Counted from the stretch's first letter, positions 812-40,629 are shown. The stretch: 64,000 nt of DNA from Candidatus Poriferihabitaceae bacterium (GCA_965214205.1 OZ243941.1:2225419-2289418), one strand, 5' to 3'. The notes: generated by a model not told the origin, from the letters alone. Made by a program: numbers and translations.

Positions 812-1894
812 ATGATTCACTCACACGCAACAAAATCCGGGCTGAAGGCCGTACTCGCCTCCGTATCCATTGCGGTACTGCTAGCGGCGCCGGTACAACA
901 GGCTGACGCCGAAGACAAGATCAGATGGAAGGTGCAGTCCACCTTCAACACGGCCTGGCCGGCTCTTGGTGACCCCATTGCCTACCTGGCCGATACTCTG
1001 GACCGGTCGACGGACGGCCGTATCAAGCTGAAAATCTACGAACCCGGCAAAATCGTGCCGCCGCTTGAAATCACTCCTTCGATCACCAAGGGAGATCTGC
1101 CCGCGGCCTATAATTACCTGGCTTATGACCAGGGACGCATCCCATCGGCAGTCCTGTTTTCCGCCGTCCCGTTCGGCATGGAGCCCTGGGAATACGCGGC
1201 CTGGTGGTTCGAGGGTGAAGGCTCCGGTCTGGCCGCGGAAATTTATCACCAGCGCAATGTCCATCCGTTACTGTGCAGCACCATCGGTCCCGAAACAGCG
1301 GGCTGGTACCGAAAACCGATCAAGGGGCTGGATGATTTGCAGGGTCTGAAAATCAGATTCTCCGGACTTGGCGGCATGGTACTGAATGAAATCGGCGCGT
1401 CAGCGACCCTGATGGCGGGCGGTGAAATCTTCGCGGCTCTTGAGAAAGGAACGCTGGACGCAACCGAGTATTCGATGCCGGCGATTGATGAAATACTGGG
1501 ATTCCACAAGATCGCCAAATACAACCTGTTCCCCGGCTGGCATCAGCCTTCGACCTCAACCCACCTGCTGATCAACCTCGATATCTGGAACGAACTGTCG
1601 GCGGCGGATCAGGCGCTGTTCGAGATGGCTTGCACGGCGGCCACGATGCGGGCAATCACTCGCGGCGAGTCGTTGCAGGGGGCCCAGATTCAGGGATTTG
1701 CGGATAAGGGCGTAACCGCGGCCAAGCTACCCGATGACGTCATCGAGGAACTCAAGAGGGTTTCCATGGAGGTCATCAACGAGGAAGCGGCCAAGGATGC
1801 GGATTTCAAAAGGGTATGGGAATCCCAACAGGCGTTCCACGAGCAGTATCAGGTCTGGAAAGAATGGGGTTACCTGCCCAGGAATTTCAACTGA
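812..1894 (+). CDS. TRAP transporter substrate-binding protein (DctP-type, mannitol/chloroaromatic-like subfamily)
   Basis: 360 aa with an N-terminal signal peptide (AVLLAAPVQQADA). Family-typical stretches are LKIRFSGLGG, TLDATEYSMPAIDE and FPGWHQPST. It is followed by DctQ- and DctM-like genes. Confidence 0.8.
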   Translation: MIHSHATKSGLKAVLASVSIAVLLAAPVQQADAEDKIRWKVQSTFNTAWPALGDPIAYLADTLDRSTDGRIKLKIYEPGKIVPPLEITPSITKGDLPAAYNYLAYDQGRIPSAVLFSAVPFGMEPWEYAAWWFEGEGSGLAAEIYHQRNVHPLLCSTIGPETAGWYRKPIKGLDDLQGLKIRFSGLGGMVLNEIGASATLMAGGEIFAALEKGTLDATEYSMPAIDEILGFHKIAKYNLFPGWHQPSTSTHLLINLDIWNELSAADQALFEMACTAATMRAITRGESLQGAQIQGFADKGVTAAKLPDDVIEELKRVSMEVINEEAAKDADFKRVWESQQAFHEQYQVWKEWGYLPRNFN

Positions 1895-1949
1895 TCGGAT
1901 AACCTGAAATGCGGGGCGGCTGACTGCCGTAATGCCTGCCCCACCGACT

Positions 1950-1974
1950 CCGCAGCCGATTATTCCGGCTGCGG
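1950..1974 (+). terminator. Intercistronic GC-rich hairpin between dctP-like and dctQ-like genes (possible partial terminator or mRNA-stabilising stem)
   Basis: CCGCAGCCG-attattc-CGGCTGCGG forms a 9-bp perfect stem. It is followed by a weak T tract (ggtttcc). Confidence 0.35.
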
Positions 1975-2019
1975 GGTTTCCCGTTGATTCAATCAGGCCC
2001 CCGTGTTAAACAGGAAGAC

Positions 2020-2610
2020 ATGTCTGAAGTTACAGAAATCGTCGAGTCTCTGGAGCATCATGACGCTCTGGTTGAAACGCCCCTGAGCAGGAAGCTGGAC
2101 GCCTTCGTCCTGTCGATATGCGAAGTATTCAACTGGATCTGGGTTGCCCTGCTGCTGGTCATTATCGGCAATGTCATCCTGAGGTACGCGTTCAGCCAGG
2201 GCATGATCGAACTCGAGGAGTTGCAGTGGCATCTGTACGCCATTGGCTGGCTGATGGGACTTTCCTCAACCTTTATCGTGGATGGTCATGTGCGGGTGGA
2301 CGTGCTGCACGACAAATTGTCCTACAAAGGCAAAATGTGGTTCGAACTGGCCGGACTGATGGTGTTGTTTTTGCCATTCGTCATCTTTGTGCTCTGGTAT
2401 TCACTGGATCTGGTCGCGCTTTCTTGGTCCACCAGCGAACGTTCGACCTCGGCCAACGGCTTGCCCGCCAGATGGGTTATCAAGGGATTCCTGACTTTCA
2501 GCTTCATACTGCTTTGTCTGGCTGGCGCCTCGCGGCTGATCAAAGTCGTGGCCTCGTTGAAATCACCGCCCGACCCGGATCAGGCCTCTCTTTCCAAAGG
2601 CGCGGCGTAG
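2020..2610 (+). CDS. TRAP transporter small permease (DctQ family)
   Basis: The ORF 1984-2610 is open, but the ATG at 2020 is preceded by AGGAAG. There are four hydrophobic helices, and the position between SBP and DctM is typical. Confidence 0.7.
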   Translation: MSEVTEIVESLEHHDALVETPLSRKLDAFVLSICEVFNWIWVALLLVIIGNVILRYAFSQGMIELEELQWHLYAIGWLMGLSSTFIVDGHVRVDVLHDKLSYKGKMWFELAGLMVLFLPFVIFVLWYSLDLVALSWSTSERSTSANGLPARWVIKGFLTFSFILLCLAGASRLIKVVASLKSPPDPDQASLSKGAA

Positions 2611-2619
2611 CCGGTTTCG

Positions 2620-3981
2620 ATGATTGAGTTCGAAGCCAATCACTACATGGCGCTGGGGCTGTTCGCCTCCTTCATCATTTTTATTTTCCTGGGCTACCCG
2701 GTGGCCTGGCTAATGGGGGGGCTGGCGATCCTTTTCACCCTGATATCCGTATTGTCGGATACCTGGCTGGACACGTTCTTCGGAGTTGACTGGGGATACG
2801 CCTCAATCATGGTGGACCGAATTTACGCGGTTATGAGCAACTGGGTGCTGGTCGCCCTGCCGATGTTCATTTTCATGGGGATCATGCTGGACCGGTCGGG
2901 GATTGCGGAAGACCTGATGACCGACCTGGCCAGACTGTTCGGTCGGATGAGAGGCGGTATCGCGATCGCCGTGGTCTTCATCGGGGTATTGCTGGCCGCG
3001 TCAACCGGCATTATCGGCGCCTCTGTCGTGCTGCTGGCGATACTGGGTATCCCGTTGATGCTGAAGAACAAATACAGCCCGGAACTGTCCTGCGGCGTGG
3101 TTTGCGCGACCGGCACTCTGGGGATCCTGATTCCACCGAGCATCATGCTGGTCATGATGGGCGACCAGATCGGAATATCGGTTGGCGACCTGTTCATGGG
3201 AGCGGTATTTCCCGGCTTGTTGCTGGGCATTTTCTATACGGTCTATATCGTCACCTATGCGTGGTTCGCGCCAAATGTGGCGCCCGCGCCTGAAAACGCC
3301 GAACCGGTCACCGCGAAAATCCTGCTCAATGTACTGCGTTCCACCATACCCCCGGCGTTGCTTATCTTTGCGGTGCTCGGCAGTATTTTCTTCGGCATCG
3401 CGACGCCGACGGAAGCGTCCGGGGTCGGGGCGCTGGGAGCGACCCTGCTCGCTCTGATGCGGGGCCGGTTATCCTGGAAGGAATTGAATGATGTCGTCCA
3501 GAAAACCTCCCGAACCACCGCCTACATATTTGCGCTGTTTGTCGGCGCGACTGCGTTTTCCCTGGTGCTGCGCGGTCTGGGCGGCGATGAAGTGATCGAG
3601 GGAGCGCTGACCGCCCTGCCCTTCGGCACCCAGGGCGTGGTCATTATCGTGTTGTTGTCGGCGTTCATTCTCGGCTTCTTTCTGGACTGGATTGAAATTA
3701 CGCTGATTATCCTGCCCCTGATTGCGCCGGTAATCAGCGATCTGGGGGTCAACATCGTGTGGTTCACCGTCATGTTTGCGGTCTGCCTCCAGACCTCCTT
3801 CATCACGCCACCGGTCGGTTTCGCGCTTTTCTACATGAAAGGGGTGGCGCCCAAGGGGATCGAGATTACCCAGGTGTACAAGGGCGTAATCCCGTTCGTG
3901 ATCCTCCAGATGATCGCCGTATGGGTCATATTCCAATGGCCCGCGCTGGTCACCTGGCTGCCCGATATCGCTTATCGGTAG
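2620..3981 (+). CDS. TRAP transporter large permease (DctM family)
   Basis: 453 aa polytopic membrane protein with DctM-like stretches ([26 protein letters not shown]). Its 3' end overlaps the convergent mnmG 3' end by 32 bp. Confidence 0.85.
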
Positions 3982-5872
3982 CTCTCCCGTCATTGTCGGC
4001 GCGTCTGATTTTCTTCAGATGGACCAGCAATAGGGAAACGGCAGCCGGGGTCACCCCCGGAATCCGGGCAGCCTGACCGACTGTCTGCGGGCGGGTTTCG
4101 GTCAATTTCTGTTGAGCCTCAGCGGACAACCCTCTCACCCCGGCGTAATCCACCGACTGCGGGATCGTCAGCCGGTCACTGTTTTTCTGACGTTCGATTT
4201 CGATCATCTGGCGCTCGATATAGCCACTGTATCGAGCCTGAATCTCAAGTTGCCGGATGCTGTCCGGGTCGTCAAGCGGAGAATCCAGTTGAGCCAGTTC
4301 AACCAGGCCGTGGTAGTCAATCTCCGGTCTCCTCAGCAGATCAAGCAGATTGGCCTCCCGTTGCAATGGCTGGCCGAGAAGGCGTTGAATCCGTGCCGGG
4401 TCGGTTTTGTCCGGGTGAATCCAGGTTCTCTCCAGGCGCCCTTTTTCCCGTTCAATCCGGTTCCTTTTCAGGGTGAAGGCGGCGATGCGCTGATCATCCA
4501 CAACCCCCAACCGGAAACCCGTTTCAGTCAACCGCAGGTCGGCATTGTCTTCACGAAGCTGCAGTCGGTATTCCGCGCGGGAGGTGAACATCCGATAAGG
4601 CTCGGCGGCGCCACGAGTCACCAGGTCATCAATCATGACTCCGATATAGGCCTCGTTCCGGGCCGGGCTCCAGGGTTCCTCCTGCCTGATCTTCAACGCC
4701 GCGTTGATGCCCGCGATCAAACCCTGGCCCGCCGCTTCCTCATATCCAGTGGTGCCGTTGATCTGTCCAGCGAAGAATAATCCGTCGACCGATTTGGTTT
4801 CCAGCGAATTGTTGAGGCCGCGCGGATCAAAAAAATCATATTCGATAGCATAGCCGGGGCGGGTGATCAGGGCCCGTTCAAAGCCTTTGATGGTTCTCAC
4901 GAAGGCATGCTGCACATCGAACGGCAGGCTGGTGGAAATACCGTTGGGATACACTTCCGTGGTATTCAGCCCTTCCGGTTCGACAAAAATCTGATGGCTG
5001 TTCTGCTCGGCGAAGCGCACCACCTTGTCCTCAACCGAGGGGCAGTAACGCGGCCCCACCCCTTCAATTTCGCCGCCGTAAAGCGGTGACCGATGCAGGG
5101 ATTCCCGGATGATTTCATGGGTCCGGTCATTGGTATGCGTAATGTGGCAACAGACCTGCTCAGGATGCTGCTCTGCGCCGCCGAGAAAAGAGAACACGGG
5201 AACAGGACGGTCTCCCGGTTGTTTTTCCAGCTTGCCATAGTCGATGGTTTTGCCGTCGATCCGCGGCGGAGTCCCGGTTTTCAGCCGGTCCACGCGAAAC
5301 GGCAACTCCCGCAGCCGGTTCGCCAGCGCGATGGACGGAGGGTCGCCAGCCCGCCCGCCTGTGGACTGGTCCATTCCGACATGAATTTTACCGTTCAGGA
5401 AAGTCCCCGCCGTCAATATCACAACCGGCGCTTCAATCTCGATTCCCGACCCGGTTTTAATCCCGGTCACCCGGTCTCCGCACAGGATCAGGTCATCAAC
5501 GGACTGCTGGAATACGGTCAGGCCGGGTTGATGCTCAACCGCCCGCCGAATCGCCATTTTATACAGCGCCCGGTCCGCCTGGGCGCGCGTCGCCTGTACC
5601 GCTGGCCCTTTCCGGGAATTCAATTTGCGAAAATGAATGCCGGATTGGTCAATCGCCCTGGCCATGACGCCGCCGAGAGCGTCAATCTCCTTGACAATAT
5701 GGCCCTTGCCAATTCCTCCGATCGCTGGATTGCATGACATCTGCCCGATTGTTTCGATATTGTGGGTAATCAACAGGGCCCGGCAGTTCATCCGGGCAGC
5801 CGCCAGCGCCGCTTCCACGCCGGCGTGACCGCCGCCGATCACCACGATCTCGAATTTTTCCGGATATTTCAT
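3950..5872 (-). CDS. mnmG: tRNA uridine 5-carboxymethylaminomethyl modification enzyme MnmG (GidA)
   Basis: 640 aa. It has the N-terminal FAD motif [12 protein letters not shown], then [22 protein letters not shown] and [16 protein letters not shown], with full-length collinearity to GidA. Confidence 0.95.
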
Positions 5873-5904: not shown

Positions 5905-7530
5905 CTATTGATAATAATAATCATACTTCTGCAGGATTTCCCAGGTGAATCCCCAAGCCTCGTTGAAAGTCAGATTACTGTCATCGGGAATCACGATTCT
6001 GGTATACAGCGACTTGCCCAGCCGGTTTTTCAGGTCTTCCAGGATGGCATCCAGTTGGTCTCTGGAAACCGGAGCCAAACCGGGGTCGTCCGGTCGCTTG
6101 ATGCTGTACGACAAGGTTCCGCTGATTTTCTCCACCCGGACTTCCGCCACGGTTTTGCCGACCGGACTCCTCGCCGGACGAACCAGCTTGCGGTACTGGG
6201 CGTCCAGACTTTCGTACTCTTCCTGCAGGGACTGATACTGCTGGGCGGAAGTATCCGCGCTCGCCCTCAAAGCGGCAATCTCCACTTCCCGTTGCTCAAT
6301 CAATTCCTGCAGCGCCAGAATCTCATCGGTCACCCGCGCGTACCGCTCCGCCGCGCTCTCATTGACTCTTTCCACTTGCGCCATTTCTTCGGTCAACAAC
6401 TGGTTCTCAAGAGTGGACCGGGACAACAATCGTCTCAAGTGTTCAAGTTGCTCTGACAGCGTGTAGATACGGTCTTCCAGTGTGGTTCTTTCGTCAATCA
6501 GGGAAGCGATTTCAGCTTCGGACTGCATCTTCAACTCTGCCAGCGTTTCGTCCAGAGACCCGATATTCCGGGTTAAAAGCAGTTCGCTGGCAGTCAACTC
6601 CACCAGTTCGTCCTGTAACTTACGCTCAATCTCGGTCAGTGAAGCAACCTGTTGAAGCGCCTGCGCCAGTGATTCCGCCAACGAGACGCGTTCGGCCTCG
6701 ACATTTTCCAGCATGACTTCGAGGTCCGCCTTTTGCTGTGTCAGATCATCCCGCGCCGCGGCCAGCAACGCCACTTCTTCCTGCAACCCGCTCTCACTGT
6801 TGATCAGCGTGGCAATCTGTTCACGCGCCTGCGTCAGCGATTCCGTCAGTGAGGAGCGTTCGGCCTCGACATTTTCCAGCATGACTTCGAGGTCCGCCTT
6901 TTGCTGTGTCAGATCATCCCGCGCCGCGGCCAGCAACGCCACTTCTTCCTGTAACCCGCTCTCACTGTTGATCAGCGTGGCAATCTGTTCACGCGCCTGC
7001 GTCAGCGATTCCGTCAGTGAGGAGCGTTCGGCTTCGACGCGTTGCAACAAAGTCTGGAGATCCGCTGTGTCGGCGGTCAGGCCCTCCACCTTCGCTGAGG
7101 TTTCAAGCTGGGCCTGTTGCAGTCGCACGTTGGCCTGCTCAAGCTCCTCCCGCACCGCGTTCACTGACTCCAGATCCGCCAGCAGTTCAACCTGATGCTC
7201 GGACAACGAGGCAATCCGGTCCAGCGCCTGCGTCAACGACATCGACAATGAGGTTCGCTCGGTTTCCGCGCTTTCCAGAGAGGCTTCCAACTCCGTATTT
7301 TTTTGCAACAGATCCTGATTGGCCAGCATCACAGCCTCCCTGGCCGTGATATTGGTCAGTAACTCACTGCTCAATCCGAAATTGCGCACCATGATGACGA
7401 CCAGCGTCATCAGGAATATCATCACGATTACCGTCATGATATCGGTAAAAGACGGCCATACGCTGTCATCCCCGATACCTGTGGCGCCGTGGCCGATCCT
7501 GAGATCGACAAAGCCGTTGGTTTTCAGCAT
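5905..7530 (-). CDS. MotB-like membrane protein. It has an N-terminal MotB-type TM/plug helix with the conserved Asp, about 390 aa of coiled coil with internal repeats, and a small C-terminal domain that is not OmpA-like. Function unknown.
   Basis: 541 aa. VWPSFTDIMTVIVMIFLMTLVV resembles the MotB TM helix (W....aD.mT). Residues about 55-445 are heptad-rich and essentially free of Pro and Gly. The C-terminus is VAEVRVEKISG...YTRIVIPDDSNLTFNEAWGF. The gene lies 14 bp downstream of the MotA-like gene. Confidence 0.8.
   Translation of the reverse strand: MLKTNGFVDLRIGHGATGIGDDSVWPSFTDIMTVIVMIFLMTLVVIMVRNFGLSSELLTNITAREAVMLANQDLLQKNTELEASLESAETERTSLSMSLTQALDRIASLSEHQVELLADLESVNAVREELEQANVRLQQAQLETSAKVEGLTADTADLQTLLQRVEAERSSLTESLTQAREQIATLINSESGLQEEVALLAAARDDLTQQKADLEVMLENVEAERSSLTESLTQAREQIATLINSESGLQEEVALLAAARDDLTQQKADLEVMLENVEAERVSLAESLAQALQQVASLTEIERKLQDELVELTASELLLTRNIGSLDETLAELKMQSEAEIASLIDERTTLEDRIYTLSEQLEHLRRLLSRSTLENQLLTEEMAQVERVNESAAERYARVTDEILALQELIEQREVEIAALRASADTSAQQYQSLQEEYESLDAQYRKLVRPARSPVGKTVAEVRVEKISGTLSYSIKRPDDPGLAPVSRDQLDAILEDLKNRLGKSLYTRIVIPDDSNLTFNEAWGFTWEILQKYDYYYQ
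6688..7023. repeat. Tandem duplication, 2 x 168 bp (56 codons each), inside the coiled-coil gene
   Basis: 6688-6855 and 6856-7023 are identical except C6784 versus T6952. The first 9 bp recur at 7024-7032, and degenerate older copies flank the pair. Confidence 0.9.
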
Positions 7531-7544
7531 TCGGCAGTCCGGCT

Positions 7545-8561
7545 CTAGGGTTCCAGGCCCCCGGGTCGCAACCGGAATCCACGTTGCAACAGGGTTACAA
7601 CCTCATTCAGATTTTCATTATTCTGGCTGGTTGTGGACATCTGGACTTCAATCATTTCACGGATCAGGGCCAGCATTTCCTGATTGCCCTGATCTTCCAT
7701 TGCCCGCGACTCCAGCAGTTCCGTCAGTTTCTGTGTTACCCGTTCCTGGGCCTGTCCCAATTTTTCAATCAACTCACCGGCGGACTGGATATCCGAGAAA
7801 TCCAGCGCCGACCCTTGCTGGCCGCCCTGGAGATGCGGTATCAATGTGGTCGCGGTCACTTCCTCGATCTTGCTGATCAGGAAAGTCTGGGTGTCGGTCA
7901 GTTTGATATAAAAATAGCCGAAGAACAGATACGCGAGGATTGCGGTCAGGGTGGTGGACAGTGCGGTGGACATGCCGAAAATCATAGTGCCCAGACCTTG
8001 AGCGCTTTCCTGGTCACCGCCCGGAAGAATATTGATCTGCCCGCTGCTCTGCAAAATATCAGAAGCGCCCAGCAACGAAATCGACAGAGAAACAATCGTT
8101 CCGAACACGCCGGTCAGGATCAGCACATTGTGGACAAATTTCAGAAAACTGTTGCGGCTTGATTCAGAGGCCAGCAAGGTGGCGGCCAGGGCATTGTGAT
8201 TGATGGCCTCACGTCGAAGACTCAGTGACTGAAGGGTCAGAAACCGCTCAGAGATCATCAGTTTGCGGGGAATTCCAATCAATGGTTCACTGCCTGTACC
8301 GAGATTGGACTGCAACCGATTGATCGCCTGCTCCTGGTTCCGATACTCCATGAATCGCTTGATCAGTTCAAACAGGCCGCAAACAAACAGAAGCAGGATG
8401 CCTCCGTTGATCAGCCAGCCTACCGCGTTGACCTGGTTATGGAAATAAATCTGTGTGATCAGGTCCCGCTGCCAAACCCCCGCGATTGCCAGAATTCCCA
8501 GAACAAGCAGTATTTGTAACAGAATATTTCGAGTGTAATTATGTGGAGTAGCGTCAATCAT
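7545..8561 (-). CDS. MotA/TolQ/ExbB-family proton-channel-like membrane protein with a helical acidic C-terminal tail
   Basis: 338 aa with four hydrophobic helices. The last two, ILTGVFGTIVSLSISLLG and GMSTALSTTLTAILAYLFFGYF, match the MotA_ExbB pattern. About 110 aa of charged helical sequence follow. Confidence 0.75.
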   Translation of the reverse strand: MIDATPHNYTRNILLQILLVLGILAIAGVWQRDLITQIYFHNQVNAVGWLINGGILLLFVCGLFELIKRFMEYRNQEQAINRLQSNLGTGSEPLIGIPRKLMISERFLTLQSLSLRREAINHNALAATLLASESSRNSFLKFVHNVLILTGVFGTIVSLSISLLGASDILQSSGQINILPGGDQESAQGLGTMIFGMSTALSTTLTAILAYLFFGYFYIKLTDTQTFLISKIEEVTATTLIPHLQGGQQGSALDFSDIQSAGELIEKLGQAQERVTQKLTELLESRAMEDQGNQEMLALIREMIEVQMSTTSQNNENLNEVVTLLQRGFRLRPGGLEP

Positions 8562-8651: not shown

Positions 8652-8715
8652 CAAGTAATTATTTTTTCGCAGGAAAAACATTCAAAGGCTGGCCGGCCAC
8701 GCGGCAATTTGAAAG

Positions 8716-10113
8716 TCATTTACCGATACAGAATGCGCTGAAAATCATACCGAGCAGATCATCACTGCTGATTTCTCCGGTAATCCCGGACAGCGCGCGC
8801 TGACAGGCGTTCAAATCTTCGGCCAGCAATTCACCGGCCTGGAATTTTTTCTGTTGTTCCAGGCCATGGAGCAGGAACTCCTCAGCCCGGTCCAGCGCGT
8901 CGAGATGCCTTTGCCGGGCAAGGAAATGACTGTCGTCAACATCACGAAACCCGGCAATGTGTCTGATTTTCCCCTTCAGGATGTCGATACCGTCACCGGT
9001 GAGCGCGGACACACATACCTCGTTTTCAGCCCCGCAGCCGGGTCGGCGGCCGGTCAGGTCGATTTTATTGCGTACCAGCAGGACCGGGGCCGGGGTATCC
9101 AGTTCCCGCAACAGGGAATTCGTCTCGATATCCGAAGTTTGGGAATCATCCACCAGTAAAAGCGCCAGCCCGGCGCGGTTCTGCTGCTGAATCGCCCGGC
9201 GTACCCCTTCCGCTTCGATTTCACTGGCGGCCGGTCGGATTCCGGCGGTATCGACTATTTCTACAGGCAGTCCATCCAGGTCGATGAACTGTTCCAGCAC
9301 GTCCCGTGTGGTGCCGGGAATGTCGCTGACAATCGCCCGTTGGTCATTGCACAAATAGTTGAGCAGACTGGATTTTCCCGCATTCGGCAAACCCGTCAAC
9401 ACCACCTTCAGGCCCTCCCGCAGCAACATTCCCTGTCTGGTGGATCTTTTCAACGAAGCGAACAGGGACGACAGATGTTCCAGTTGATCGACCACCCTGG
9501 CGTCTTCGAGAAAATCTATTTCCTCATCCGGGAAATCAATGGCGGCTTCGACAAAAATCCGCAGACGGGTCACCTCCTCCACCAGTTCGTGGATGCGCCT
9601 CGAAAAGCCACCCTGAAGCGATTGAACCGCAGACCGGGCCGCGGCCTGCGTGCCGCTGTCGATCAAATCCGCAATCGCCTCCGCCTGGGTCAGATCCATC
9701 CGTCCGTTCAAAAAAGCGCGTTTGGAGAATTCGCCGGGCTGAGCCAGTCTGGCGCCCAACGCCAGGCAATTCTGCAACAACATCTGCATCACCACGGGAC
9801 TGCCGTGAGCCTGGAGTTCGAGCGTGGATTCCCCGGTGAAACTGTGCGGGGCGGGGAAATACAAGGCGATTCCATTGTCAATAACCAAGCCGTCCCGGTC
9901 CAGGAAATCGGTATGGTGGGCATGGCGGGGAGCCGGACAGACGCCGACAAGCCGCCTGGCGATGCGGATTACATCCGGGTCGGGACCGGACAGACGGACA
10001 ATACTGATTCCCCCGCGGCCCGGCGGCGTCGCAACGGCGACAATGGTATCGGTACTTGCGAAGCCGGGTGAAACCCCGGATTCCGGTTCAGGGCATGTCC
10101 CTGAATCAGGCAC
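8716..10113 (-). CDS. mnmE: tRNA modification GTPase MnmE (TrmE)
   Basis: Motifs DTIVAVATPPGRGGISIVRLSG, G1 GLPNAGKSSLLN, DTAGIR and NKIDL, plus the C-terminal CIGK. There is a roughly 20-aa N-terminal extension if the start is at 10113. Confidence 0.95.
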   Translation of the reverse strand: MPDSGTCPEPESGVSPGFASTDTIVAVATPPGRGGISIVRLSGPDPDVIRIARRLVGVCPAPRHAHHTDFLDRDGLVIDNGIALYFPAPHSFTGESTLELQAHGSPVVMQMLLQNCLALGARLAQPGEFSKRAFLNGRMDLTQAEAIADLIDSGTQAAARSAVQSLQGGFSRRIHELVEEVTRLRIFVEAAIDFPDEEIDFLEDARVVDQLEHLSSLFASLKRSTRQGMLLREGLKVVLTGLPNAGKSSLLNYLCNDQRAIVSDIPGTTRDVLEQFIDLDGLPVEIVDTAGIRPAASEIEAEGVRRAIQQQNRAGLALLLVDDSQTSDIETNSLLRELDTPAPVLLVRNKIDLTGRRPGCGAENEVCVSALTGDGIDILKGKIRHIAGFRDVDDSHFLARQRHLDALDRAEEFLLHGLEQQKKFQAGELLAEDLNACQRALSGITGEISSDDLLGMIFSAFCIGK

Positions 10114-11830
10114 TCTGGTACTTGCGGGTGATATAGTATTGCTGCGCGATGGAAAGAAGGTTATTGACCACCCAGTAAAGAACCAGGCCGGCCGGGAACC
10201 ACAGGAAAAAGATGGTAAACACGAAAGGCAGCGCCATCATGATCTTTTTCTGGATCGGGTCGACCGGGGCGGGATTCAGGAAGTGCTGGGCCAGCATCGA
10301 AAGTCCCATGATAATCGGCAACACAAAGTACGGGTCCGGCAGTGAAAGATCATTCAGCCACCACATGAAATCGGCCTGACGCAGTTCCACACTCTCCAGC
10401 AGGGTCCAGTACAATGCGATGAATACCGGAATCTGCACCAGCACGGGTAAACAGCCGCCCGCCGGATTCACTTTCTCCTGCTTGTAGAGTTTCATCATCT
10501 CCTGTTGAAACTTCTGCTTGTCGCCACTGTAGCGCTCTTTCAGTGTCGCCATTCTCGGCTGCAGCTTTTTCATCTTCGCCATCGACTTGTAACTGGCCGC
10601 TGACAGAGGATAGAAAACCGCCTTGACCAGAACCGTCAGCAGGATAATGGCCCACCCCCAGTTCAGGGTTACCCCGTAGATCTTGCTCAACAGCCAGAAC
10701 AGGGGGTTGGCGAGCGGGGTGAACCAGCCATAGTCCACCGTCAATTTCAATCCATTCTTGTTCTGCCGGTCGAGGCGCACCTGTTCTTTCGGTCCGACAA
10801 ACATCGCGGTTGGAATCACACCGGTCTGGCTGGGATGGACCGTCACCGGCCGGGTTGTCTTGTAGCCGATGCGGTATTCGGGTTTGGGAGTCTTGTTGTT
10901 CACGCCCGAATACAACTGGTAATAATCGGACTCCATCGGCAGCCATGCGGCCACAAAGTAATGCTGCAGCATCGCAACCCAGCCATCCACCGTGGTCATG
11001 TTCAATGTTTCGTCCTGAATCTCGCCGTAGTCAATTTTGTCGTACTTGTCTTCCTCGGTATAAATCGCCGCCCCATTGTAACTCGGTATCCGCCCCAGGA
11101 AACCCAGTGACCCTTCCTGTTCAATTTCGGTTTGTTTCAACTGTCCGTAGACAAAACCCGTCCATGGCTGGTCGCTGTTGTTGGTGACCCGGAAATCAAC
11201 CTCTATCCGGTAACTGTCCCTCTGGAAACGGTAAATTTTCTCATAATCCACGCCATCCGGGGCGCTCCAGGTCAATACCACATCCAGATTCTGGTCGTCA
11301 CCCAGGCGGTACTCGAACTGAGACGCGGAAAACTCGATATTATGATTGGGATACTCCCGGTCCTGCCCGATCAGCCCGCTTTGCGCGACGAACAGGCTCG
11401 GATTGTCCCTGTGCATCAGCACGAACGGAATATCGGGCGTATCCACACTGACCGGATGCTTCAGCAGTTCCACCCGGATCAGGTCCCCGCCGCGGGGGTC
11501 TATTTGCGCATTGACCAGATCTGTCGTGATCTGGATAATCCGGCCATCGGCAGCCCCCGCGTCTTCAGCCGCGCCGACCTCGTCAACCGGGGCGTCCGCT
11601 CCGGCGCTATCAATGTTGGCTGTTATCTCAGGAGCGTCGGGCACATCCTCGGTCAAATTGACACGGGGGACGGCGGCGCCCGGGACTGACCCATCCGCGC
11701 CCCGCTCGGCGGTCGGGACGCCTGCCACCGATCTTTCGCGCTGGAATTCCGTCCAGGATTGCCAGATCATGACCAGCACCAGGCCGAGCGCCACGAACAG
11801 CATCATTTTTTGAAATGGCATGTTACTCAA
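10106..11830 (-). CDS. yidC: Membrane protein insertase YidC
   Basis: 574 aa with an N-terminal TM helix, a large periplasmic domain and a C-terminal insertase core ([32 protein letters not shown]). Its position after yidD/rnpA is canonical. Confidence 0.95.
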
Positions 11831-12057
11831 TTTTCAGCCGGGACCGGATCATCCCCTCCTTCATGCCAGGGATGGCAACGCCCAACCCGTTTGACGGTCA
11901 ACCAGGCGCCGTAAATCACGCCATGCCGCTCGACCGCTTCGATCGCGTACCTCGAACAGGTTGGATGGAAGCGGCAGTTCTGCCGCAGGAACGGACTCAG
12001 CGCAATCTGGTAAATCCGGATCAGGACAATCAAGATTTTTTCCGGCAACTTTCGCAT
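11827..12057 (-). CDS. yidD: Membrane protein insertion efficiency factor YidD
   Basis: 76 aa with the motif [19 protein letters not shown]. It overlaps the rnpA 3' end, as is usual. Confidence 0.9.
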
Positions 12058-12419
12058 TTTCGACTCGCTCTACCCCACAAACTGTCCAGCTCTTTCTTCA
12101 GCATCCGGTTGGGTTGTTCCGCGCCGCCCGCTTTGGACACAACGACGCAATCCATCGAACAACCCGCGGACGACAGCGTCCACTGATTGGCCCGGAACGA
12201 TTCCCTGATCTGCCTCTTGATCCGGTTGCGTTCAACCGCCTTTTTACTGACCCGTCTGGAAACCGCCAACCCCAGTCTGGCATGTGGAAGCGCGTTCCCG
12301 GCGACATGCAGACTGAAATACCTGCCATGGACTGAAATCCTTCGATCAAAAACCGCCTTGAACTGAGCGCCTTTCAATAACTTTTGATGTCGTCCAAAAC
12401 CAGCCGCAAGCGGCGACAT
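12030..12419 (-). CDS. rnpA: Ribonuclease P protein component
   Basis: 129 aa, basic, with the RNR-type motif [15 protein letters not shown]. It lies between rpmH and yidD. Confidence 0.9.
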
Positions 12420-26736: not shown

Positions 26737-28050
26737 ATGCTGAATGACCTTCGCGCTACCTGGGCATTGCTGATCGGCATCGGATTCATGATGTTGGGCA
26801 ACGGACTTCAGGGAACCCTGCTTGGGCTACGCGCCACTATGGAGGGCTTCCCCACCTTCATTACCGGCATCATCATGTCGGGTTACTTTTTCGGCATTCT
26901 GGCAGGCTCCATAGTCGCCCCGCGACTGGTAGAACGAGTCGGCCATATTCGGGTATTTGCCGCGCTCGCTTCCATGGCATCCATTTCCATTCTCGTGCAT
27001 GGTCTTCACGTTAGCCCGATAAGCTGGACCGCCATGCGATTCGTCACCGGCTTGAGTTATGCAGGACTGTACGTGGTAGCGGAAAGCTGGCTGAACGACC
27101 GCGCCAGCAACGAGACGCGTGGCCGGATTCTGTCTGTCTATATGGTGATTACCACCCTGGGACTCGGTTGCGGTCAGTTTCTGCTCAATCTGGGTGACCC
27201 ACGGCAACTTGAGCTTTTCATTCTGGTTTCCATGATCGCGTCTGCCGGATTGATTCCAATTTTGCTCACAGCCAAGCCCGCACCCGGATTTGGCCCAACC
27301 GAAAAAATGTCCTTGAAAGAGCTCTATCGCGCTTCGCCACTGGCGGTGATCAGCAGCGCTTTGACCGGAGCAGCGCACGGCACTATTTTTGGGCTGGGGC
27401 CGGTTTATGCCGCCCAGATTCTGGAAAGAACCGACCTGGTTTCAATCTTCATGGCTTGTGTCCTGCTCGGCGGCCTGATTACCCAATGGCCAATCGGCTG
27501 GTTATCCGACCGGATTAACCGCAGAGTTACCCTATCCGTTCTTTGCATGGTTTCGATAGTCGTTTGCATCGCAGCGATGTTGCTGGTAAAGGGCAGTACC
27601 GCCTATTTTGTCGCGATTGCGATTCTGGGCGGAGCGGCAATACCCATGTATGCGTTAAACGTCGCTTATGCCAATGACCGATTGCGGCCAGATCAGGTCG
27701 TGGCGGCCAGCAGTAGCCTGGTAATGCTGACCGGAATCGGCTTGAGTACAGGTCCGATTGCCGTGTCATTCCTGATGGGACAGTTCGGGCCTTCCCTCTT
27801 TTTCATTGGAATCGCAATGTTCTTTACCCTGATTCTGGGATTCTCAGCCTGGCGTATGAGGATTACCGAGGCCATTGCCCCCGGCGACCAAAGCCCGGTG
27901 ATTGCGACAGGGTTGATCGGTACTCCGGTAGCCGAATATATCGCGCCCGATGCAGAAGATTATGTGGAAGCGCTGCTCCAGGATGAATTGCACCTGCTGG
28001 ACGAACAAGACACGGACGACAATGGCGATGAAGAAAAACCGGGCGCCTGA
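26737..28050 (+). CDS. MFS transporter
   Basis: 437 aa with about 12 TM helices, an MFS loop motif around DRINRR, and an acidic C-terminal tail. Confidence 0.8.
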   Translation: MLNDLRATWALLIGIGFMMLGNGLQGTLLGLRATMEGFPTFITGIIMSGYFFGILAGSIVAPRLVERVGHIRVFAALASMASISILVHGLHVSPISWTAMRFVTGLSYAGLYVVAESWLNDRASNETRGRILSVYMVITTLGLGCGQFLLNLGDPRQLELFILVSMIASAGLIPILLTAKPAPGFGPTEKMSLKELYRASPLAVISSALTGAAHGTIFGLGPVYAAQILERTDLVSIFMACVLLGGLITQWPIGWLSDRINRRVTLSVLCMVSIVVCIAAMLLVKGSTAYFVAIAILGGAAIPMYALNVAYANDRLRPDQVVAASSSLVMLTGIGLSTGPIAVSFLMGQFGPSLFFIGIAMFFTLILGFSAWRMRITEAIAPGDQSPVIATGLIGTPVAEYIAPDAEDYVEALLQDELHLLDEQDTDDNGDEEKPGA

Positions 28051-28106
28051 TAAAATCGCCTTACAATACCCTGGCAACAAAAGAAAACTGAACCGGCAAT
28101 CAACCC

Positions 28107-28433
28107 ATGAAAGGAAGACAGATCATAAGAACCCGCAGTACCGCATTTGGCGAATACTCCTGGGACCCTGAAAATACCGACATCCGAATGTTGAGCCTCA
28201 GTTACGACTCTGAATCCGGGCAAGGTTCCTATATCATGCGGATGGAGCCGGGCGCCGAAACCGAACTCCACACCCATGAATATAACGAAGAATACTTCAT
28301 CATCGAAGGCGACCTGATTGAACCGGACGGCGCCGTGCTCGGACCCGGAGACATGGTTATTTTCAAGCCGGGAACGCGACACAACAGCCGCACCGTCAAC
28401 GGCTGCCTGCTGATCGCGATAGACTATGCCTGA
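28107..28433 (+). CDS. Cupin-domain protein
   Basis: 108 aa with cupin motifs HTHEYNEEYFIIEGDL and GDMVIFKPGTRH. Confidence 0.6.
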   Translation: MKGRQIIRTRSTAFGEYSWDPENTDIRMLSLSYDSESGQGSYIMRMEPGAETELHTHEYNEEYFIIEGDLIEPDGAVLGPGDMVIFKPGTRHNSRTVNGCLLIAIDYA

Positions 28434-28462
28434 CTCCATTAGCAAGTCAATAAAATTCACAC

Positions 28463-28489
28463 AACCCGTAGAAACGCATACCCCCACAG
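28463..28489. repeat. Left copy of an imperfect direct repeat, a relic of the dgkA 3' end (attL-like)
   Basis: AACCCGTAGAaacGCATACCCccACAG here aligns with AACCCGTAGAgcGCATAtaCCCACAG at 29676-29701. That is 10 identical bases followed by 13 further matches with small indels. Confidence 0.6.
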
Positions 28490-28526
28490 GCAGAGTCAGG
28501 ATCAGTGCATAACGACAGGGCGTGTT

Positions 28527-29123
28527 TCAAGAAGCGTTCACAAAAACCAGTAAACCTCGGAAGTCGTGCCTGTCGGCAGCTCTGAGCGCCGCAATATATT
28601 GATCGCGACGCTGATTCATACTTTCCAGACTGTGGCCTCCCGCCCAATCAATAGCAGACTCATTCATCAGCTTGGTCAATACGGCATCTGCCATAATACG
28701 TGCATGACGACCATTCCCGTTTGAGAATGGATGGATATACACAAGCTGGTGGTGAAATCGTGCCGCGAGTTCTTTTGGCAAGTATGTATTGTTATCCACC
28801 CAATACTGCGCGTTGTCCAGAAGCTGACGCAACTGAATAGCGATCTGGCCTGGGTCGACACCGATATTCTTTCCTGTCCTGCGAAACTGCCCGGCCCATT
28901 TCCAGACCTTACCAAACAACCGTTTATGAAGATCACGTACAAACCCTTCTGTCAGCACATCGGGGGCCTTCTGCTTTGCAAGCCACTGCATTCCCTCTAT
29001 GATATTGGCCTGCTCAAGCTGATCAAGCTCACCCCGCGTTGAGATATGCTTAAAGCGAAGCCCTTCCATTTCATCAGGATCAAGAGGCGTTGCACCTTCG
29101 GGGTAACACATGACCCCACTCAT
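28527..29123 (-). CDS. Fic-domain protein (mobile mystery protein B-like)
   Basis: 198 aa with the Fic motif HPFSNGNGRHAR. It shares a 4-bp overlap with the upstream HTH gene. Confidence 0.85.
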   Translation of the reverse strand: MSGVMCYPEGATPLDPDEMEGLRFKHISTRGELDQLEQANIIEGMQWLAKQKAPDVLTEGFVRDLHKRLFGKVWKWAGQFRRTGKNIGVDPGQIAIQLRQLLDNAQYWVDNNTYLPKELAARFHHQLVYIHPFSNGNGRHARIMADAVLTKLMNESAIDWAGGHSLESMNQRRDQYIAALRAADRHDFRGLLVFVNAS

Positions 29124-29584
29124 TCATCACTCCATAAATCAGAAGGCATTTTTTCTCTGATCTCTGAGGCAATCCGTTCAACCTCAAAAGACAGCAACTC
29201 GTCATTCAGCGCTTGATCTTCAAGCGCCATGTGAACAGATGCGGCCTCTATTCGCTCTCTGGCTTTTCGAACAGCTCTCTTTTGAATCAGACCTTCTATT
29301 TCCTGCTCAGGTAAAACAGCATAGACGAAACGACAATTCATCGCTCCAGCCATACTTTTCATAGACTTGAGTGTGATACTACCGGTCAATTCGTCTTGTT
29401 CCGCTCTGGAAACTCGCGCTTTTGTAACCCCTAACCGCTTAGCCAACTGTGGTCCCGACATACCCAGAGCATTGCGTACTGTCCGAAGCCACCCCTCAGG
29501 AGGCATAGAAAGATCATTAACCTGCCTGATAGCCTGGTTAATCTTCTCTCTGTATTGTTGCGCGATAATCTTGTTAATACTCAT
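29120..29584 (-). CDS. XRE-type helix-turn-helix protein (mobile mystery protein A-like), the putative cognate regulator or antitoxin of the Fic protein
   Basis: 154 aa with the HTH LRTVRNALGMSGPQLAKRLGVTKARVSRAEQ. It is translationally coupled to the Fic gene. Confidence 0.75.
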   Translation of the reverse strand: MSINKIIAQQYREKINQAIRQVNDLSMPPEGWLRTVRNALGMSGPQLAKRLGVTKARVSRAEQDELTGSITLKSMKSMAGAMNCRFVYAVLPEQEIEGLIQKRAVRKARERIEAASVHMALEDQALNDELLSFEVERIASEIREKMPSDLWSDE

Positions 29585-29648
29585 GTATCAACCCTTACAT
29601 TTACTTTCATACAATATTGTAAACATAAATATATACAAGATAACTTAT

Positions 29649-29672
29649 TTAGTCAATATAAATATTGACTAA
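29649..29672. promoter_or_regulatory. Perfect 11-bp inverted repeat (2-bp spacer) in the AT-rich leader of the HTH-Fic operon. Candidate operator.
   Basis: TTAGTCAATAT-aa-ATATTGACTAA lies 65 bp upstream of the HTH start and overlaps the dgkA stop codon (29669-29671). Confidence 0.5.
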
Positions 29673-30058
29673 TATAACCCGTAGAGCGCATATACCCACA
29701 GACCAGCACTCACAACCAGTGCCATCAGCACCGCGGCGCTCCCCGCGTCCTTGGCTTTTTTCGCCTCACGGTGAAACTCGCCGGTAACCATATCCACCAC
29801 AGCCTCAACGGCGGTGTTCAACAACTCGGCCACCAATACCAGGGCATGACTGAACAAAATTACGGCCTTGAGCCAGGGATCGAACGGCAGATACAGACAC
29901 AAAGCGGATAGCAGCGCGGCAACAACGACCTCCAGCCTGAAAGCGGCTTCCTCACGCCAGGCGGCCCGAAGTCCGTCGATTGAATGAAGCAACGCCCGCC
30001 ACAACCGGGGGCCGGTGACGGATTGGGGAATTTCCGGCTGCTTGTTCATACGGGACAT
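29669..30058 (-). CDS. dgkA: Diacylglycerol kinase (prokaryotic DgkA family)
   Basis: Motifs RLWRALLHSIDGLRAAWREEAAFRLE and NTAVEAVVD, with three TM helices. The start is taken at the internal ATG at 30058 (129 aa, similar to the roughly 120-aa family size). Confidence 0.8.
   Translation of the reverse strand: MSRMNKQPEIPQSVTGPRLWRALLHSIDGLRAAWREEAAFRLEVVVAALLSALCLYLPFDPWLKAVILFSHALVLVAELLNTAVEAVVDMVTGEFHREAKKAKDAGSAAVLMALVVSAGLWVYALYGLY
29676..29701. repeat. Right copy of the direct repeat. It forms the actual 3' coding end of dgkA (attR-like).
   Basis: See 28463-28489. This copy encodes the dgkA C-terminus ...LWVYALYGLY. Confidence 0.6.
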
Positions 30059-30113
30059 GATACCAGCCCCGCAAACCGTATGACAGGCCGGATTTATTGT
30101 ATACTGCGTTGCC

Positions 30114-30917
30114 ATGAAGATCGCGAGACTACAACCAGCAGAGAGGGCGCCCTGTTACGCCATTGATCACGGCGGCCAGCGCTATACCGAAGCCGCGGGC
30201 AATCTGTATCAGGGTCTGACAGATACCGGGAAATCAGTTACCGGAAAGCTCCTGTCACCCATCCTGCCAACCGACATCTACTGCATCGGACTGAATTACG
30301 TTAAACACGCGCAAGAAGGAAAACAGGAAATCCCGGAGCGTCCGGTACTGTTTTTCAAATCCACATCCTCATTACAAAACCCCGGAGACCCGATTATCCT
30401 GCCGCGAAAACTACCCAGCAAAAAAGTGGATTTCGAAGCCGAACTGGCCGTGGTGATCGGCAAAACCTGCCACAATGTCTCCCGGCAAGACGCGCTTGAC
30501 CATGTTCTGGGTTATACCTGCGCGAACGACGTCAGCGCCCGGGACTGGCAACGACTGGGCGGGGGCGGCCAGTGGTGCCGGGGGAAAACATTCGCCACAT
30601 TCTGCCCGCTCGGCCCATTACTGGTTACCGCCGATGAAATCCCGAACCCGAATGCACTGGCCATAAAGAGCCATCTGAACGGAGAAACCATGCAGGACTG
30701 GAATACCGATGACATGATATTCGATGTGCCGGCCCTGATCGAATTTTTGAGCGGAAGTACCCTGTTGAATCCGGGCAGCGTCATACTGACCGGCACTCCC
30801 CACGGAGTCGGATTCGCCCGCAAGCCGCCCGTCTATCTCCAACCCGGAGACCAAATCACCATAGAGATAGAAAACATCGGCAGCCTGACAAACCCGGTTG
30901 TTGAAGAAGAAGCCTGA
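30114..30917 (+). CDS. Fumarylacetoacetate hydrolase (FAH) family protein
   Basis: 267 aa with FAH-fold motifs VDFEAELAVVIGK, GKTFATFCPLGP and LTGTPHGVG. Confidence 0.85.
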   Translation: MKIARLQPAERAPCYAIDHGGQRYTEAAGNLYQGLTDTGKSVTGKLLSPILPTDIYCIGLNYVKHAQEGKQEIPERPVLFFKSTSSLQNPGDPIILPRKLPSKKVDFEAELAVVIGKTCHNVSRQDALDHVLGYTCANDVSARDWQRLGGGGQWCRGKTFATFCPLGPLLVTADEIPNPNALAIKSHLNGETMQDWNTDDMIFDVPALIEFLSGSTLLNPGSVILTGTPHGVGFARKPPVYLQPGDQITIEIENIGSLTNPVVEEEA

Positions 30918-30964
30918 TGGTATTCCATCAAACAACCATCAAAATAAATCCGAAAAATCTCCCG

Positions 30965-31354
30965 CTAATATACATTGAGACCCAGTAAATCAGCCATTGC
31001 ATCAAAATCCCGATCACTATGTAGCAGCGTATGATCATTGCGAATGCAAAATGTCGCTATCAAAACATCTACAGTCTTTCTGACAGTAATACCTTGTTTA
31101 CGTAGCTTCCTGTAATTTCCGGCGCTGACAACGGCAATCTCCCGACCGATCATTTCAGCGCAAGCCAGTCGCATGAGCGCTTTTTCCGCTAATTGATAAT
31201 CCTGATCTTTCCGAAAGCCCTGAAGGATTTCTGTCAGGATCAAATCCCCCATTAAAATACGATGCGATGCTAAAAGTCTATCAAGAATATCCGTTTCACG
31301 GTTTTGTGCGCCATTGAAATAATTTATCCAGACTGATGTATCCGCAATAATCAC
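30965..31354 (-). CDS. vapC: PIN-domain toxin VapC
   Basis: 129 aa. The N-terminus MIIADTSVWINYF is typical of VapC, with further acidic residues (LHSDRDFD). There is a 4-bp overlap with the upstream antitoxin gene. Confidence 0.85.
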   Translation of the reverse strand: MIIADTSVWINYFNGAQNRETDILDRLLASHRILMGDLILTEILQGFRKDQDYQLAEKALMRLACAEMIGREIAVVSAGNYRKLRKQGITVRKTVDVLIATFCIRNDHTLLHSDRDFDAMADLLGLNVY

Positions 31355-31545
31355 TTGTCTGATCGCATCTGCTCCAGCGAGCCTTCCCAGTGCAGCTTGC
31401 CCCGAAGATTACGAAGGTCAGACTGTTGTTCGATCTGGATAAGCATTTCCAGCCCTTTCTCCACGGTCGCCTTCTTCGTCCTGGCGCCACAGGCTTTCAT
31501 TGCATGGGTCATCAGTTTATCGTCAATTTCTATATTTGTACGCAT
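31351..31545 (-). CDS. vapB: Type II antitoxin VapB (small DNA-binding antitoxin)
   Basis: 64 aa. MRTNIEIDDKLMTHAMKA is typical of the VapB/DUF2191-like antitoxins, and the gene is coupled to vapC. Confidence 0.7.
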   Translation of the reverse strand: MRTNIEIDDKLMTHAMKACGARTKKATVEKGLEMLIQIEQQSDLRNLRGKLHWEGSLEQMRSDK

Positions 31546-31554
31546 GTTGGCTTC

Positions 31555-31588
31555 TTATGTGTATAACTACCAAGCATTATACACATAA
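31555..31588. promoter_or_regulatory. 12-bp perfect inverted repeat (10-bp spacer) immediately upstream of vapB. Candidate VapB(C) operator.
   Basis: The sequence is TTATGTGTATAA-ctaccaagca-TTATACACATAA. It begins 10 bp upstream of the vapB start codon. Confidence 0.5.
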
Positions 31589-31791
31589 ACGTCCCACTGA
31601 ACGACTCGGATTACGCAAATGGGATGGATTATAGATTTGGTCACCGAAATTGGCAGGAAACCGGCGACAGAGGTATATGGAGGGGGGCATGTTGCCGGTC
31701 AAGAGGCCAAGCAGAGGTAGGAGCCCCCGACATGCGTTTCAGTAACAAATAGAGGGCCACCGCTTGCTGGCTTTCCGGCATTCCAGACAGA

Positions 31792-31832
31792 TTATGTGTA
31801 AATCAGGAGTTGAAGTCCTGATTTACACATAA
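31792..31832. promoter_or_regulatory. 17-bp perfect inverted repeat (7-nt loop) directly upstream of the AAA ATPase gene. It shares its outer 9 bp with the vapB-proximal palindrome.
   Basis: The sequence is TTATGTGTAAATCAGGA-gttgaag-TCCTGATTTACACATAA. It is followed by TACAAT and then the ATG at 31845, with no Shine-Dalgarno sequence. Confidence 0.5.
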
Positions 31833-31844
31833 TACAATGCTTGC

Positions 31845-33014: not shown

Positions 33015-33041
33015 GACGTGGTAGCCCGAAGCCCCGTTATG

Positions 33042-34322: not shown

Positions 34323-34333
34323 GGGGTATCCTC

Positions 34334-34888: not shown

Positions 34889-34923
34889 TGTGTGTAACCT
34901 CTGATCAAAACCGCATGGCGTAT

Positions 34924-34956
34924 GGTCCGCAATTGCCCGCCTTGCAACCGCGGACC
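34924..34956 (-). terminator. Intercistronic hairpin between dctP and dctQ of the second TRAP operon
   Basis: GGTCCGC...GCGGACC forms a 7-bp stem, with additional inner pairing TTGC/GCAA, in the 78-bp dctP-dctQ spacer. Confidence 0.3.
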
Positions 34957-34966
34957 GTATTTTCAA

Positions 34967-35974: not shown

Positions 35975-36030
35975 TTTTCTCCTCGTCATGTTATATCTAA
36001 TGGTTGAATAGTCTGCTGATTTATAGCACA

Positions 36031-36070
36031 ATATAATAAAAAATAAAATATATTTTATTTTTTATTATAT
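36031..36070. promoter_or_regulatory. 40-bp perfect A/T-only palindrome in the divergent dctP / gntR-like promoter region
   Basis: ATATAATAAAAAATAAAATA|TATTTTATTTTTTATTATAT is an exact reverse complement. It lies 57 bp from the dctP start and 64 bp from the regulator start. Confidence 0.6.
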
Positions 36071-36133
36071 GATATATACGCACAGTGATACAACGCATAT
36101 TTTATTTCCGAACCAAAAATACAAGCGCCTACA

Positions 36134-36868: not shown

Positions 36869-36915
36869 AACGATAAGGTTTGATCATTCGCTTACGCACG
36901 AAACGGTGACTTGAC

Positions 36916-40626: not shown

Positions 40627-40629
40627 ACG

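Follow-up and report, generated by a model that had tools for sequence, protein, structure and literature searches.

The stretch of DNA analysed here, which we call the window, comprises 64,000 nucleotides from Candidatus Poriferihabitaceae bacterium (GCA_965214205.1, OZ243941.1:2225419-2289418) and contains two minus-strand genes, A and B, that an initial annotation made from the sequence alone had described as a stator-like cassette. Gene A (7545..8561) encodes a 338-amino-acid, ExbB/TolQ/ZorA-like pentamer-type channel subunit, as judged by its open reading frame (ORF), Pfam family PF01618 and Foldseek. The ORF of gene B (5905..7530) encodes an axle-type subunit of 541 amino acids with a transmembrane helix, a coiled-coil rod and a TolR-like domain. 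The two ORFs lie 14 bp apart, with the lengths, strand and coordinates originally given for them. On balance, and with reservations, we favor the view that A and B together make up a rotary motor of 5:2 stoichiometry powered by protons or other ions, belonging to the ExbBD/TolQR/ZorAB branch, whose axle bears a long periplasmic coiled-coil stalk with a TolR-like end and which serves in envelope coupling.

Protein A has the four hydrophobic helices (ILTGVFGTIVSLSISLLG and GMSTALSTTLTAILAYLFFGYF among them) and the acidic tail that had been described for it. The tail covers residues 221-338 (7548..7901, minus strand); from the homologue alignment and the model it is a helical, predicted cytoplasmic segment of 118 residues with an isoelectric point (pI) of 4.5 and an invariant GFR(L) at its end. 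The anticipated Pfam match to MotA_ExbB (PF01618) is sub-threshold for window A (E=0.67), but is found in 26 members of a set of 40 aligned family members that are 52-94% identical to window A, with a best value of 3.8e-6, and the fold matches agree with it. Using an AlphaFold2 model of A with a mean predicted local distance difference test score (pLDDT) of 68.5, and ~80 in the transmembrane helices, we found that the top 47 Foldseek matches in the PDB are all ExbB, TolQ or ZorA chains with a probability of 1.00. Target-normalized TM-scores of the matches are 0.43-0.62, and flagellar MotA structures are absent from the top 50. In sequence searches, phmmer of A and of B against PDB sequences gave no match, the A-family profile matched only designed helical bundles in the PDB through the A tail, and GldL aligned with the A tail only (E=0.53).

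The channel core of A, comprising transmembrane helix 3, a loop and transmembrane helix 4 (residues 143-216; 7914..8135, minus strand), contains the motifs GVFGT155 and GMSTALSTT204, which are invariant in 40 homologues with T155 and T204 unchanged in every one. In a weak hhalign alignment with E. coli ExbB (E=0.0067), GVFGT155 falls on GLFGT148 and GMSTALSTT204 on PGIAEALLAT181. Such alignments to the single E. coli TolR, ExbD, TolQ, ExbB and MotA sequences were in the correct register and non-significant, and were used for residue mapping only. T148/T181 of ExbB and T145/T178 of TolQ are established as the essential channel threonines, and T155/T204 map to their positions. The channel helices of A are extremely conserved even at 35% overall identity.

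A resembles MotA, and differs from ExbB/TolQ, in having two N-terminal hydrophobic helices. The loop between hydrophobic helices 1 and 2 (residues 30-52; window ~8406-8474) has near-invariant W30, Q31, Y39, Q43, N45, G48 and N52; it should face the periplasm close to where the B rod begins, and is a candidate for a plug or for a place at which the rod docks. Because the 67-142 loop is basic with 11 Lys+Arg and the 166-190 loop has none, the positive-inside rule predicts the standard membrane orientation for A, which would place the C-terminus of B outside the cytoplasm.

Protein B opens with the transmembrane helix VWPSFTDIMTVIVMIFLMTLVV, and its sole transmembrane helix spans residues 24-48 (VWPSFTDIMTVIVMIFLMTLVVIMV; 7387..7461, minus strand). 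PADLOC and PDB profile matches identify this helix as MotB/ZorB-type with an invariant Asp30 (7441-7443); the initial annotation had recognized its MotB likeness and D30, and the surrounding motif W25-P-S-F-T-D30 is unchanged in 20 diverse homologues. A MotB-type match only at the N-terminus had been expected; this was found through ZorB, while MotB_plug itself (PF13677) reached 1 of 20 N-terminal regions at a non-significant E=0.14. The PADLOC ZorB3 model matches residues 23-73 (E=4.7e-5), and the best three PDB matches to a profile of the N-terminal 74 residues are all ZorB: 8vvn_B (7e-5), 8vvi_A (0.0086) and 8qyd_F (0.018). Entries 8vvn and 8vvi are cited in 'Modularity of Zorya defense systems during phage inhibition' (PMC11890865), and the Foldseek listing labels 8vvn as a type I ZorAB complex. 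The ExbD family PF02472 was detected in 1 of the 20 N-terminal regions (E=0.023), and NCBIfam PRK09039 ('peptidoglycan-binding protein') matches residues 24-179 with E=2.7e-6 and 27 bits vs a 305-bit cut-off. Direct Pfam, NCBIfam and PADLOC scans of window A and B also returned GAS, ERM, SMC, JetC and LmuB, all sub-threshold, which we discounted as compositional coiled-coil noise. The N-terminal peptide of B, GF-D-LR-GHG, is conserved and, together with the conserved cytoplasmic tail of A, suggests a contact on the cytoplasmic side too. From the membrane orientation of A and the relatives of the B helix, the rod of B is predicted to lie outside the cytoplasm, in the periplasm. An inverted topology with a cytoplasmic rod was considered and rejected, since the loop charges of A are standard and the homologues of the B helix are N-in.

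By composition and heptad pattern, residues 50-450 of B (6181..7383, minus strand) are an acidic heptad-repeat rod of ~401 residues with 0 Pro, 5 Gly, a pI of 4.2, and 81 Asp+Glu vs 33 Lys+Arg, matching the earlier report of a rod of ~390 residues nearly free of Pro and Gly. Rods are Pro-free in 191 of 200 homologues. In the heptads of the window rod, Leu/Ile dominate position a, Leu/Ala dominate position d and four Asn are found at a; the single register shift lies near residues 326-349. At the coiled-coil rise of 0.1485 nm per residue, the ~401 residues would measure ~59 nm as a straight coiled coil, in line with the 55-60 nm previously estimated. Gene B also contains a 168-bp tandem repeat (6644..7038, minus strand; 2.4 copies, 94% match) that encodes an exact duplication of 56 amino acids, or 8 heptads (B 165-220 and 221-276), plus a degenerate third copy. 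This 56-residue tandem duplication is recent.

We measured rod length across relatives using a spacer defined from the W of WPSFTD to the start of LVRPARS, two residues before RPARS, and subtracted ~28 residues for the remainder of the helix. The 200 full-length homologues have 77 distinct spacer lengths ranging from 168 to 522 residues, and the longest spacer in the genome loci described below is 655 residues, in B proteins of 772 residues (L004, L022). Rod length is quantized in heptads: spacer lengths modulo 7 occupy classes 0 to 6 with 22, 9, 3, 3, 33, 6 and 1 of the 77 distinct lengths (chi-square p=8e-15). The favored classes 4, 0 and 1 are offset from each other by 3 or 4 residues, the classic stammer/stutter of coiled coils. 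The resulting rods of 140-627 residues would be ~21-93 nm long if straight, with a median of 235 residues or ~35 nm. Rod length also changes fast, as B has 520, 541, 565, 597, 604 or 772 residues in relatives whose A proteins are 83-94% identical to window A. The rod insertions and deletions among close relatives are mostly multiples of 7 and fall mainly in its central part (window residues ~137-310), leaving ends of fixed length of ~85 membrane-proximal and ~140 distal residues. Since the B lengths of close relatives differ by whole heptads, the 168-bp repeat appears to be still expanding and contracting.

Such rapid change in length hints at loose constraint and could be taken to mean that A-B is not an active motor, with B acting as a membrane-anchored coiled-coil scaffold or ruler and A as a degenerate chaperone or anchor. 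The high divergence of A from Pfam MotA_ExbB fits this idea as well. However, D30, T155 and T204 never vary and the channel helices are extremely conserved, which argues for a working channel, and we regard a passive scaffold as improbable.

The last segment of B, residues 451-541 (5908..6180, minus strand), is, from an AlphaFold2 model and HMMER, a beta-beta-beta-alpha-beta-alpha domain with the motifs RPARS ... DYYYQ. The model, built from 30 homologues, is confident (pLDDT ~88-98 over positions 21-100 of a 105-residue construct). Its best Foldseek fit is the E. coli TolR periplasmic domain 5by4 (probability 0.92, E=0.3), which superposes with a TM-score of 0.53 in both normalizations and a root-mean-square deviation (rmsd) of 2.7 A over 78 columns. 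Among the 50 Foldseek matches listed, 5by4 has the highest probability and TM-score and the lowest rmsd; no match of the end domain has E<0.001. An hhalign comparison with E. coli ExbD places helix 1, the next strand and helix 2 in the same order (E=0.18), and the comparison with TolR gave E=0.29. Family PF02472 is found below its gathering score in 2 of 30 C-terminal domains at a marginal E=0.1 and not in the window protein, and homologue P0210 has a precomputed PF02472 match. A TolR/ExbD-like fold of the end domain is thus likely but not proven: the resemblance that had been noticed holds as a suggestive best structural fit, but not at the level of significance.

The end-domain family is small and closed. 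An exhaustive HMMER search with the end-domain profile over 1.84 billion representatives found 378 matches at E<=0.001, 347 of them at E<=1e-10, and the domain sits at the C-terminal end in all 150 matches listed, with no other architecture among them. A word-indexed homologue search with the C-terminal 112 residues returned 2 proteins only. The OmpA domain gave no match on full-length B nor on the 30 C-terminal domains, as the annotation had indicated for the C-terminus of B.

This bears on whether A-B could be a flagellar or gliding stator of the MotAB, PomAB or AglRQS type. The general layout of the pair is MotA/MotB-like, and the B helix is MotB-like down to a weak PF13677 match in 1 of 20 members; however, B has no OmpA-like peptidoglycan-binding domain, MotB_plug is non-significant, A has a short cytoplasmic loop like that of ExbB, and the top 50 fold matches include no flagellar MotA. 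E. coli MotA and MotB have no BLAST match, and we observe no motility genes near A-B in any locus. We consider a stator of this kind very unlikely.

To survey the gene pair, we used a pattern scan of one genome per species, which yielded 70 loci. These are mostly from Arenicellales, including the sponge-associated Ca. Poriferihabitaceae and Ca. Spongiihabitans, and the remaining loci include unclassified Gammaproteobacteria, Acidiferrobacterales, Thiotrichaceae, Granulosicoccaceae and Zetaproteobacteria, all marine. The N-terminus of B directly follows A in 70/70 loci, the B end domain is present wherever the contig continues except in one weaker locus (L060), and a complete B could be delimited in 62 of the 70. 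A has >2,220 homologues, the majority unnamed and all 'hypothetical protein' among the names listed. A-B is an obligate gene pairing and no chance ORF pair, because these A homologues, the 378 end-domain representatives and the adjacency in 70 loci all support it.

The gene order mnmE-A-B-mnmG is kept in most loci, and yidC is also seen in most of those; the position between mnmE and mnmG is the one that the pair has in Arenicellales. The identity of A across loci drops in step with that of yidC, mnmE and mnmG, which points to a vertically inherited core gene pair rather than a mobile island. No conserved third gene was found beside A-B in ten non-Arenicellales loci, where the neighbors are unrelated housekeeping genes; reading translated ORFs at distant loci, we find uvrB, ftsEX, cystathionine beta-synthase, thrC, anmK and an MscS-like gene. 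A tblastn search with E. coli Tol (TolA, TolQ and TolR), Exb and Mot proteins gave no matches in the window and the 70 loci. Flagellar, Ton, Tol, Gld, Agl and Zorya genes are not among the nearest neighbors of A-B in the window, and tolA, tolB, pal and ybgC/cpoB are not in its A-B cluster; neither the window nor the related loci have a TonB-like gene adjacent to the pair. The initial annotation was therefore right that the partner genes of known systems are not adjacent, and this extends to the related loci.

The same context can be used to evaluate a Zorya-like anti-phage sensor, or another defense module, built on a ZorAB-type core. The transmembrane region of B is closest to ZorB, in both the ZorB3 model and the three PDB entries, and ZorA is among the fold matches of A. 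However, no PADLOC model matches A even at E<=1, the A tail is ~118 residues without the long ZorA tail, and B is without the OmpA-type domain of ZorB. ZorC, ZorD, ZorE, ZorF/G-like genes or a conserved third gene were not found nearby, the neighbors being housekeeping genes, and a yidC-mnmE-A-B-mnmG synteny conserved across an order with co-declining identity is not the pattern of a defense island. We consider a defense role very unlikely.

In the motor that we favor, five A subunits would surround two B subunits in the inner membrane, and ions would pass between Asp30 of B and Thr155/Thr204 on helices 3 and 4 of A, driving rotation of A relative to B. B would join a TolR/ExbD axle to a long TolA-like or GldM-like periplasmic stalk in one polypeptide, and the distal domain would bind either peptidoglycan, by analogy with TolR, or an outer-membrane partner. 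The rod would then be a tether or a transmitter of force or torque, so that A-B would most likely link ion flow at the inner membrane with a remote target in the envelope. What the data show are the homology and fold of both subunits, the unchanging channel residues, the obligate pairing of A with B, and a rod whose length is quantized in heptads and changes fast. It is by inference that we arrive at a 5:2 assembly, at a rod that is parallel and periplasmic, and at a function in envelope coupling. We find it possible, although we would put it forward only tentatively, that A-B is an undescribed class of 5:2 motor in which the B dimer is an extended drive shaft or tether with a TolR-like tip, freely evolvable over ~21-93 nm and tuned in each lineage by tandem duplication of heptad units.

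Several observations weigh against the favored motor. Window A itself falls below the Pfam threshold, the last 91 residues of B have no significant Pfam or PDB sequence match, and the TolR similarity of the end domain is statistically non-significant both in Foldseek and in hhalign. Our searches identified no distal partner of B. Further difficulties come from the rod. Straight rods of 59 nm in the window and up to ~93 nm in relatives far exceed the usual periplasm of ~20-30 nm, so a simple perpendicular span cannot apply to most members. The signal for parallel pairing is also weak, with a mean z of 0.43, and the window protein alone is uninformative.

Most likely, the B rod is a continuous two-stranded coiled coil, parallel and in register. 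This geometry is favored because of the strict quantization of length, the dimer-type residues at positions a and d, and an excess of attractive charge pairs between positions g and e' (+5): summed over 200 related sequences, 674 pairs are attractive vs 476 repulsive, with shuffles giving approximately equal numbers. The fixed ends and variable middle of the rod also raise the alternative of the same motor with its rod folded back as an antiparallel hairpin, which would place the TolR-like domain just above the A pentamer, as in TolR/ExbD. The coiled coil would then be an antenna or spacer of ~10-46 nm (~29 nm in the window) that senses or sets envelope spacing. Half-length rods, with a median of ~17 nm, suit a normal periplasm much better than full-length ones. 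Mid-rod insertions and deletions that include the midpoint, between the fixed ends, are what a hairpin that keeps a conserved base and grows at its tip would show, and a register shift and a Gly at ~324-348 would suit a fold-back. However, there is no conserved turn motif at the midpoint: the conserved motif resembling G-x-N-[IL]-S-L lies centrally in P0210 but is displaced from the center in P0217 and window B. Strict modulo-7 total length over 77 lengths is easier to explain without a length-tolerant loop, and the g-to-e' pairing favors, weakly, parallel in-register chains. We hold the hairpin to be doubtful but worth keeping in mind next to the parallel rod. In either geometry, the longest members need to tilt, bend or lie along the membrane.

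Within the window, A-B is part of one co-directional run with the gene order rnpA (12030-12419), yidC (10106-11830), mnmE (8716-10113, upstream of A), A, B and mnmG (3950-5872, downstream of B). The spacer between mnmE and A, upstream of A, is 154 bp long and contains several TATAAT-like boxes, and a sigma-70-like promoter at 8658..8685 (minus strand) is a weak consensus match only. Given that the gap between B and mnmG is only 32 bp, mnmG may be co-transcribed with the A-B pair. MnmE and MnmG are cooperating partners in tRNA modification. The rnpA-yidC-mnmE-mnmG context raised a functional link to the replication origin, which we rejected as the pair leaves that context in distant taxa.

Seven of the related loci (L012, L024, L028, L031, L032, L033 and L064) have a B-mnmG gap of ~0.35-3.9 kb, far wider than in most loci, and in the loci with the widest gaps the junction between A-B and mnmG may be a repeated target of insertion. 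Locus L068 (JBLHGU010000123.1) has a typical A-B-mnmG arrangement and is labeled Parasphingorhabdus sp., an alphaproteobacterium; all other loci are from Gamma- or Zetaproteobacteria, a few being labeled just bacterium or Pseudomonadota. The taxon label of L068 is probably a binning error of a metagenome-assembled genome.

Beyond mnmG in the window lies the TRAP transporter DctPQM, and beyond rnpA are an MFS transporter, a pyridoxal phosphate (PLP) decarboxylase and an AhpC/TSA protein. The DctP-DctQ-DctM TRAP operon is on the plus strand at 812-3981, and its last gene is convergent with mnmG, the two overlapping by ~30 bp at their ends. Elsewhere in the window, GC content dips to 0.48-0.51 at 28000-44000 vs ~0.56. 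This region contains a second TRAP transporter (DctM, DctP), an FAA hydrolase, a mandelate racemase/enolase-superfamily enzyme, zinc-dependent alcohol (Zn-ADH) and SDR dehydrogenases, a PfkB kinase, an APH-family phosphotransferase, an enolase and an AAA_14/DUF4143 ATPase. The region resembles an island for sugar-acid catabolism and may have been acquired.

[quoted passage not shown] The known families each cross the periplasm by a different solution, and A-B would add a new one, a coiled coil built into the axle subunit. If this is true, one polypeptide would do the job that falls elsewhere to TolR and TolA, to ExbD and TonB, or to GldM, carrying energy to the wall or the outer membrane. The natural series of 168-655 spacer residues in heptad steps would amount to a test, performed by evolution, of how stalk length and register affect the transmission of force or torque, and the two-gene A-B pair is compact and suited to structural work. 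Two conserved hypothetical proteins, encoded as a pair in the core genome of sponge-associated Arenicellales and related marine sulfur-/iron-oxidizing lineages, would also gain a mechanism class.

Comparison with known systems shows likeness at the core and difference in the parts that define each system. In common with Tol-Pal, A adopts the TolQ/ExbB fold and keeps both channel threonines, the transmembrane helix of B bears an Asp, and the B end domain fits TolR best among known structures, though not significantly. The rod of B recalls domain II of TolA, a long, repetitive and length-variable helical segment. Unlike in Tol-Pal, B has 541 residues vs 142 in TolR with sequence similarity below family thresholds, the rod is within the B axle itself rather than in a separate protein docked outside the pentamer, and A has four hydrophobic helices and a 118-residue tail. 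ExbB-ExbD is similar in that the top fold matches of A are ExbB, the hhalign register of the channel motifs agrees and PF02472 is weakly present in a few B homologues; in contrast to ExbB-ExbD-TonB, B carries an inserted coiled coil of 140-627 residues, window B is below PF02472 and no TonB-like gene is nearby.

ZorAB shares with A-B a 5:2-type core bearing one very long coiled-coil appendage, and ZorB is the best sequence match of the B transmembrane region. However, the Zorya tail is on ZorA and cytoplasmic, whereas here the rod is on B and, by topology, predicted to be periplasmic. GldLM/PorLM is alike in concept, in that the dimeric axle subunit itself reaches toward the outer membrane as a long shaft in the periplasm, but we detected no Pfam or Foldseek match and no match to GldM, and the taxa differ. 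The GldM shaft consists of globular domains, measures ~18 nm and has no coiled coil. PRK09039 provides a catalogued precedent for a MotB-type helix followed by a coiled coil; it differs in its 350-position profile, its shorter coil and, by product name, a peptidoglycan-binding end, of OmpA type, that is absent from B. We found no functional study of a PRK09039-type protein in the literature. Heterogeneous non-flagellar complexes, termed 'GIT', are noted in a 2025 survey of MotAB relatives, in which the word 'coiled' does not occur (PMC12505986). Our literature search, which included this survey, found no description of a B subunit with a natural long coiled coil and no publication describing the A-B system, and the initial annotation had likewise recognized no described system here. 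By their defining features, A-B is none of Tol-Pal, Ton, the flagellar stator, Zorya and GldLM, and it would work like them at its core.

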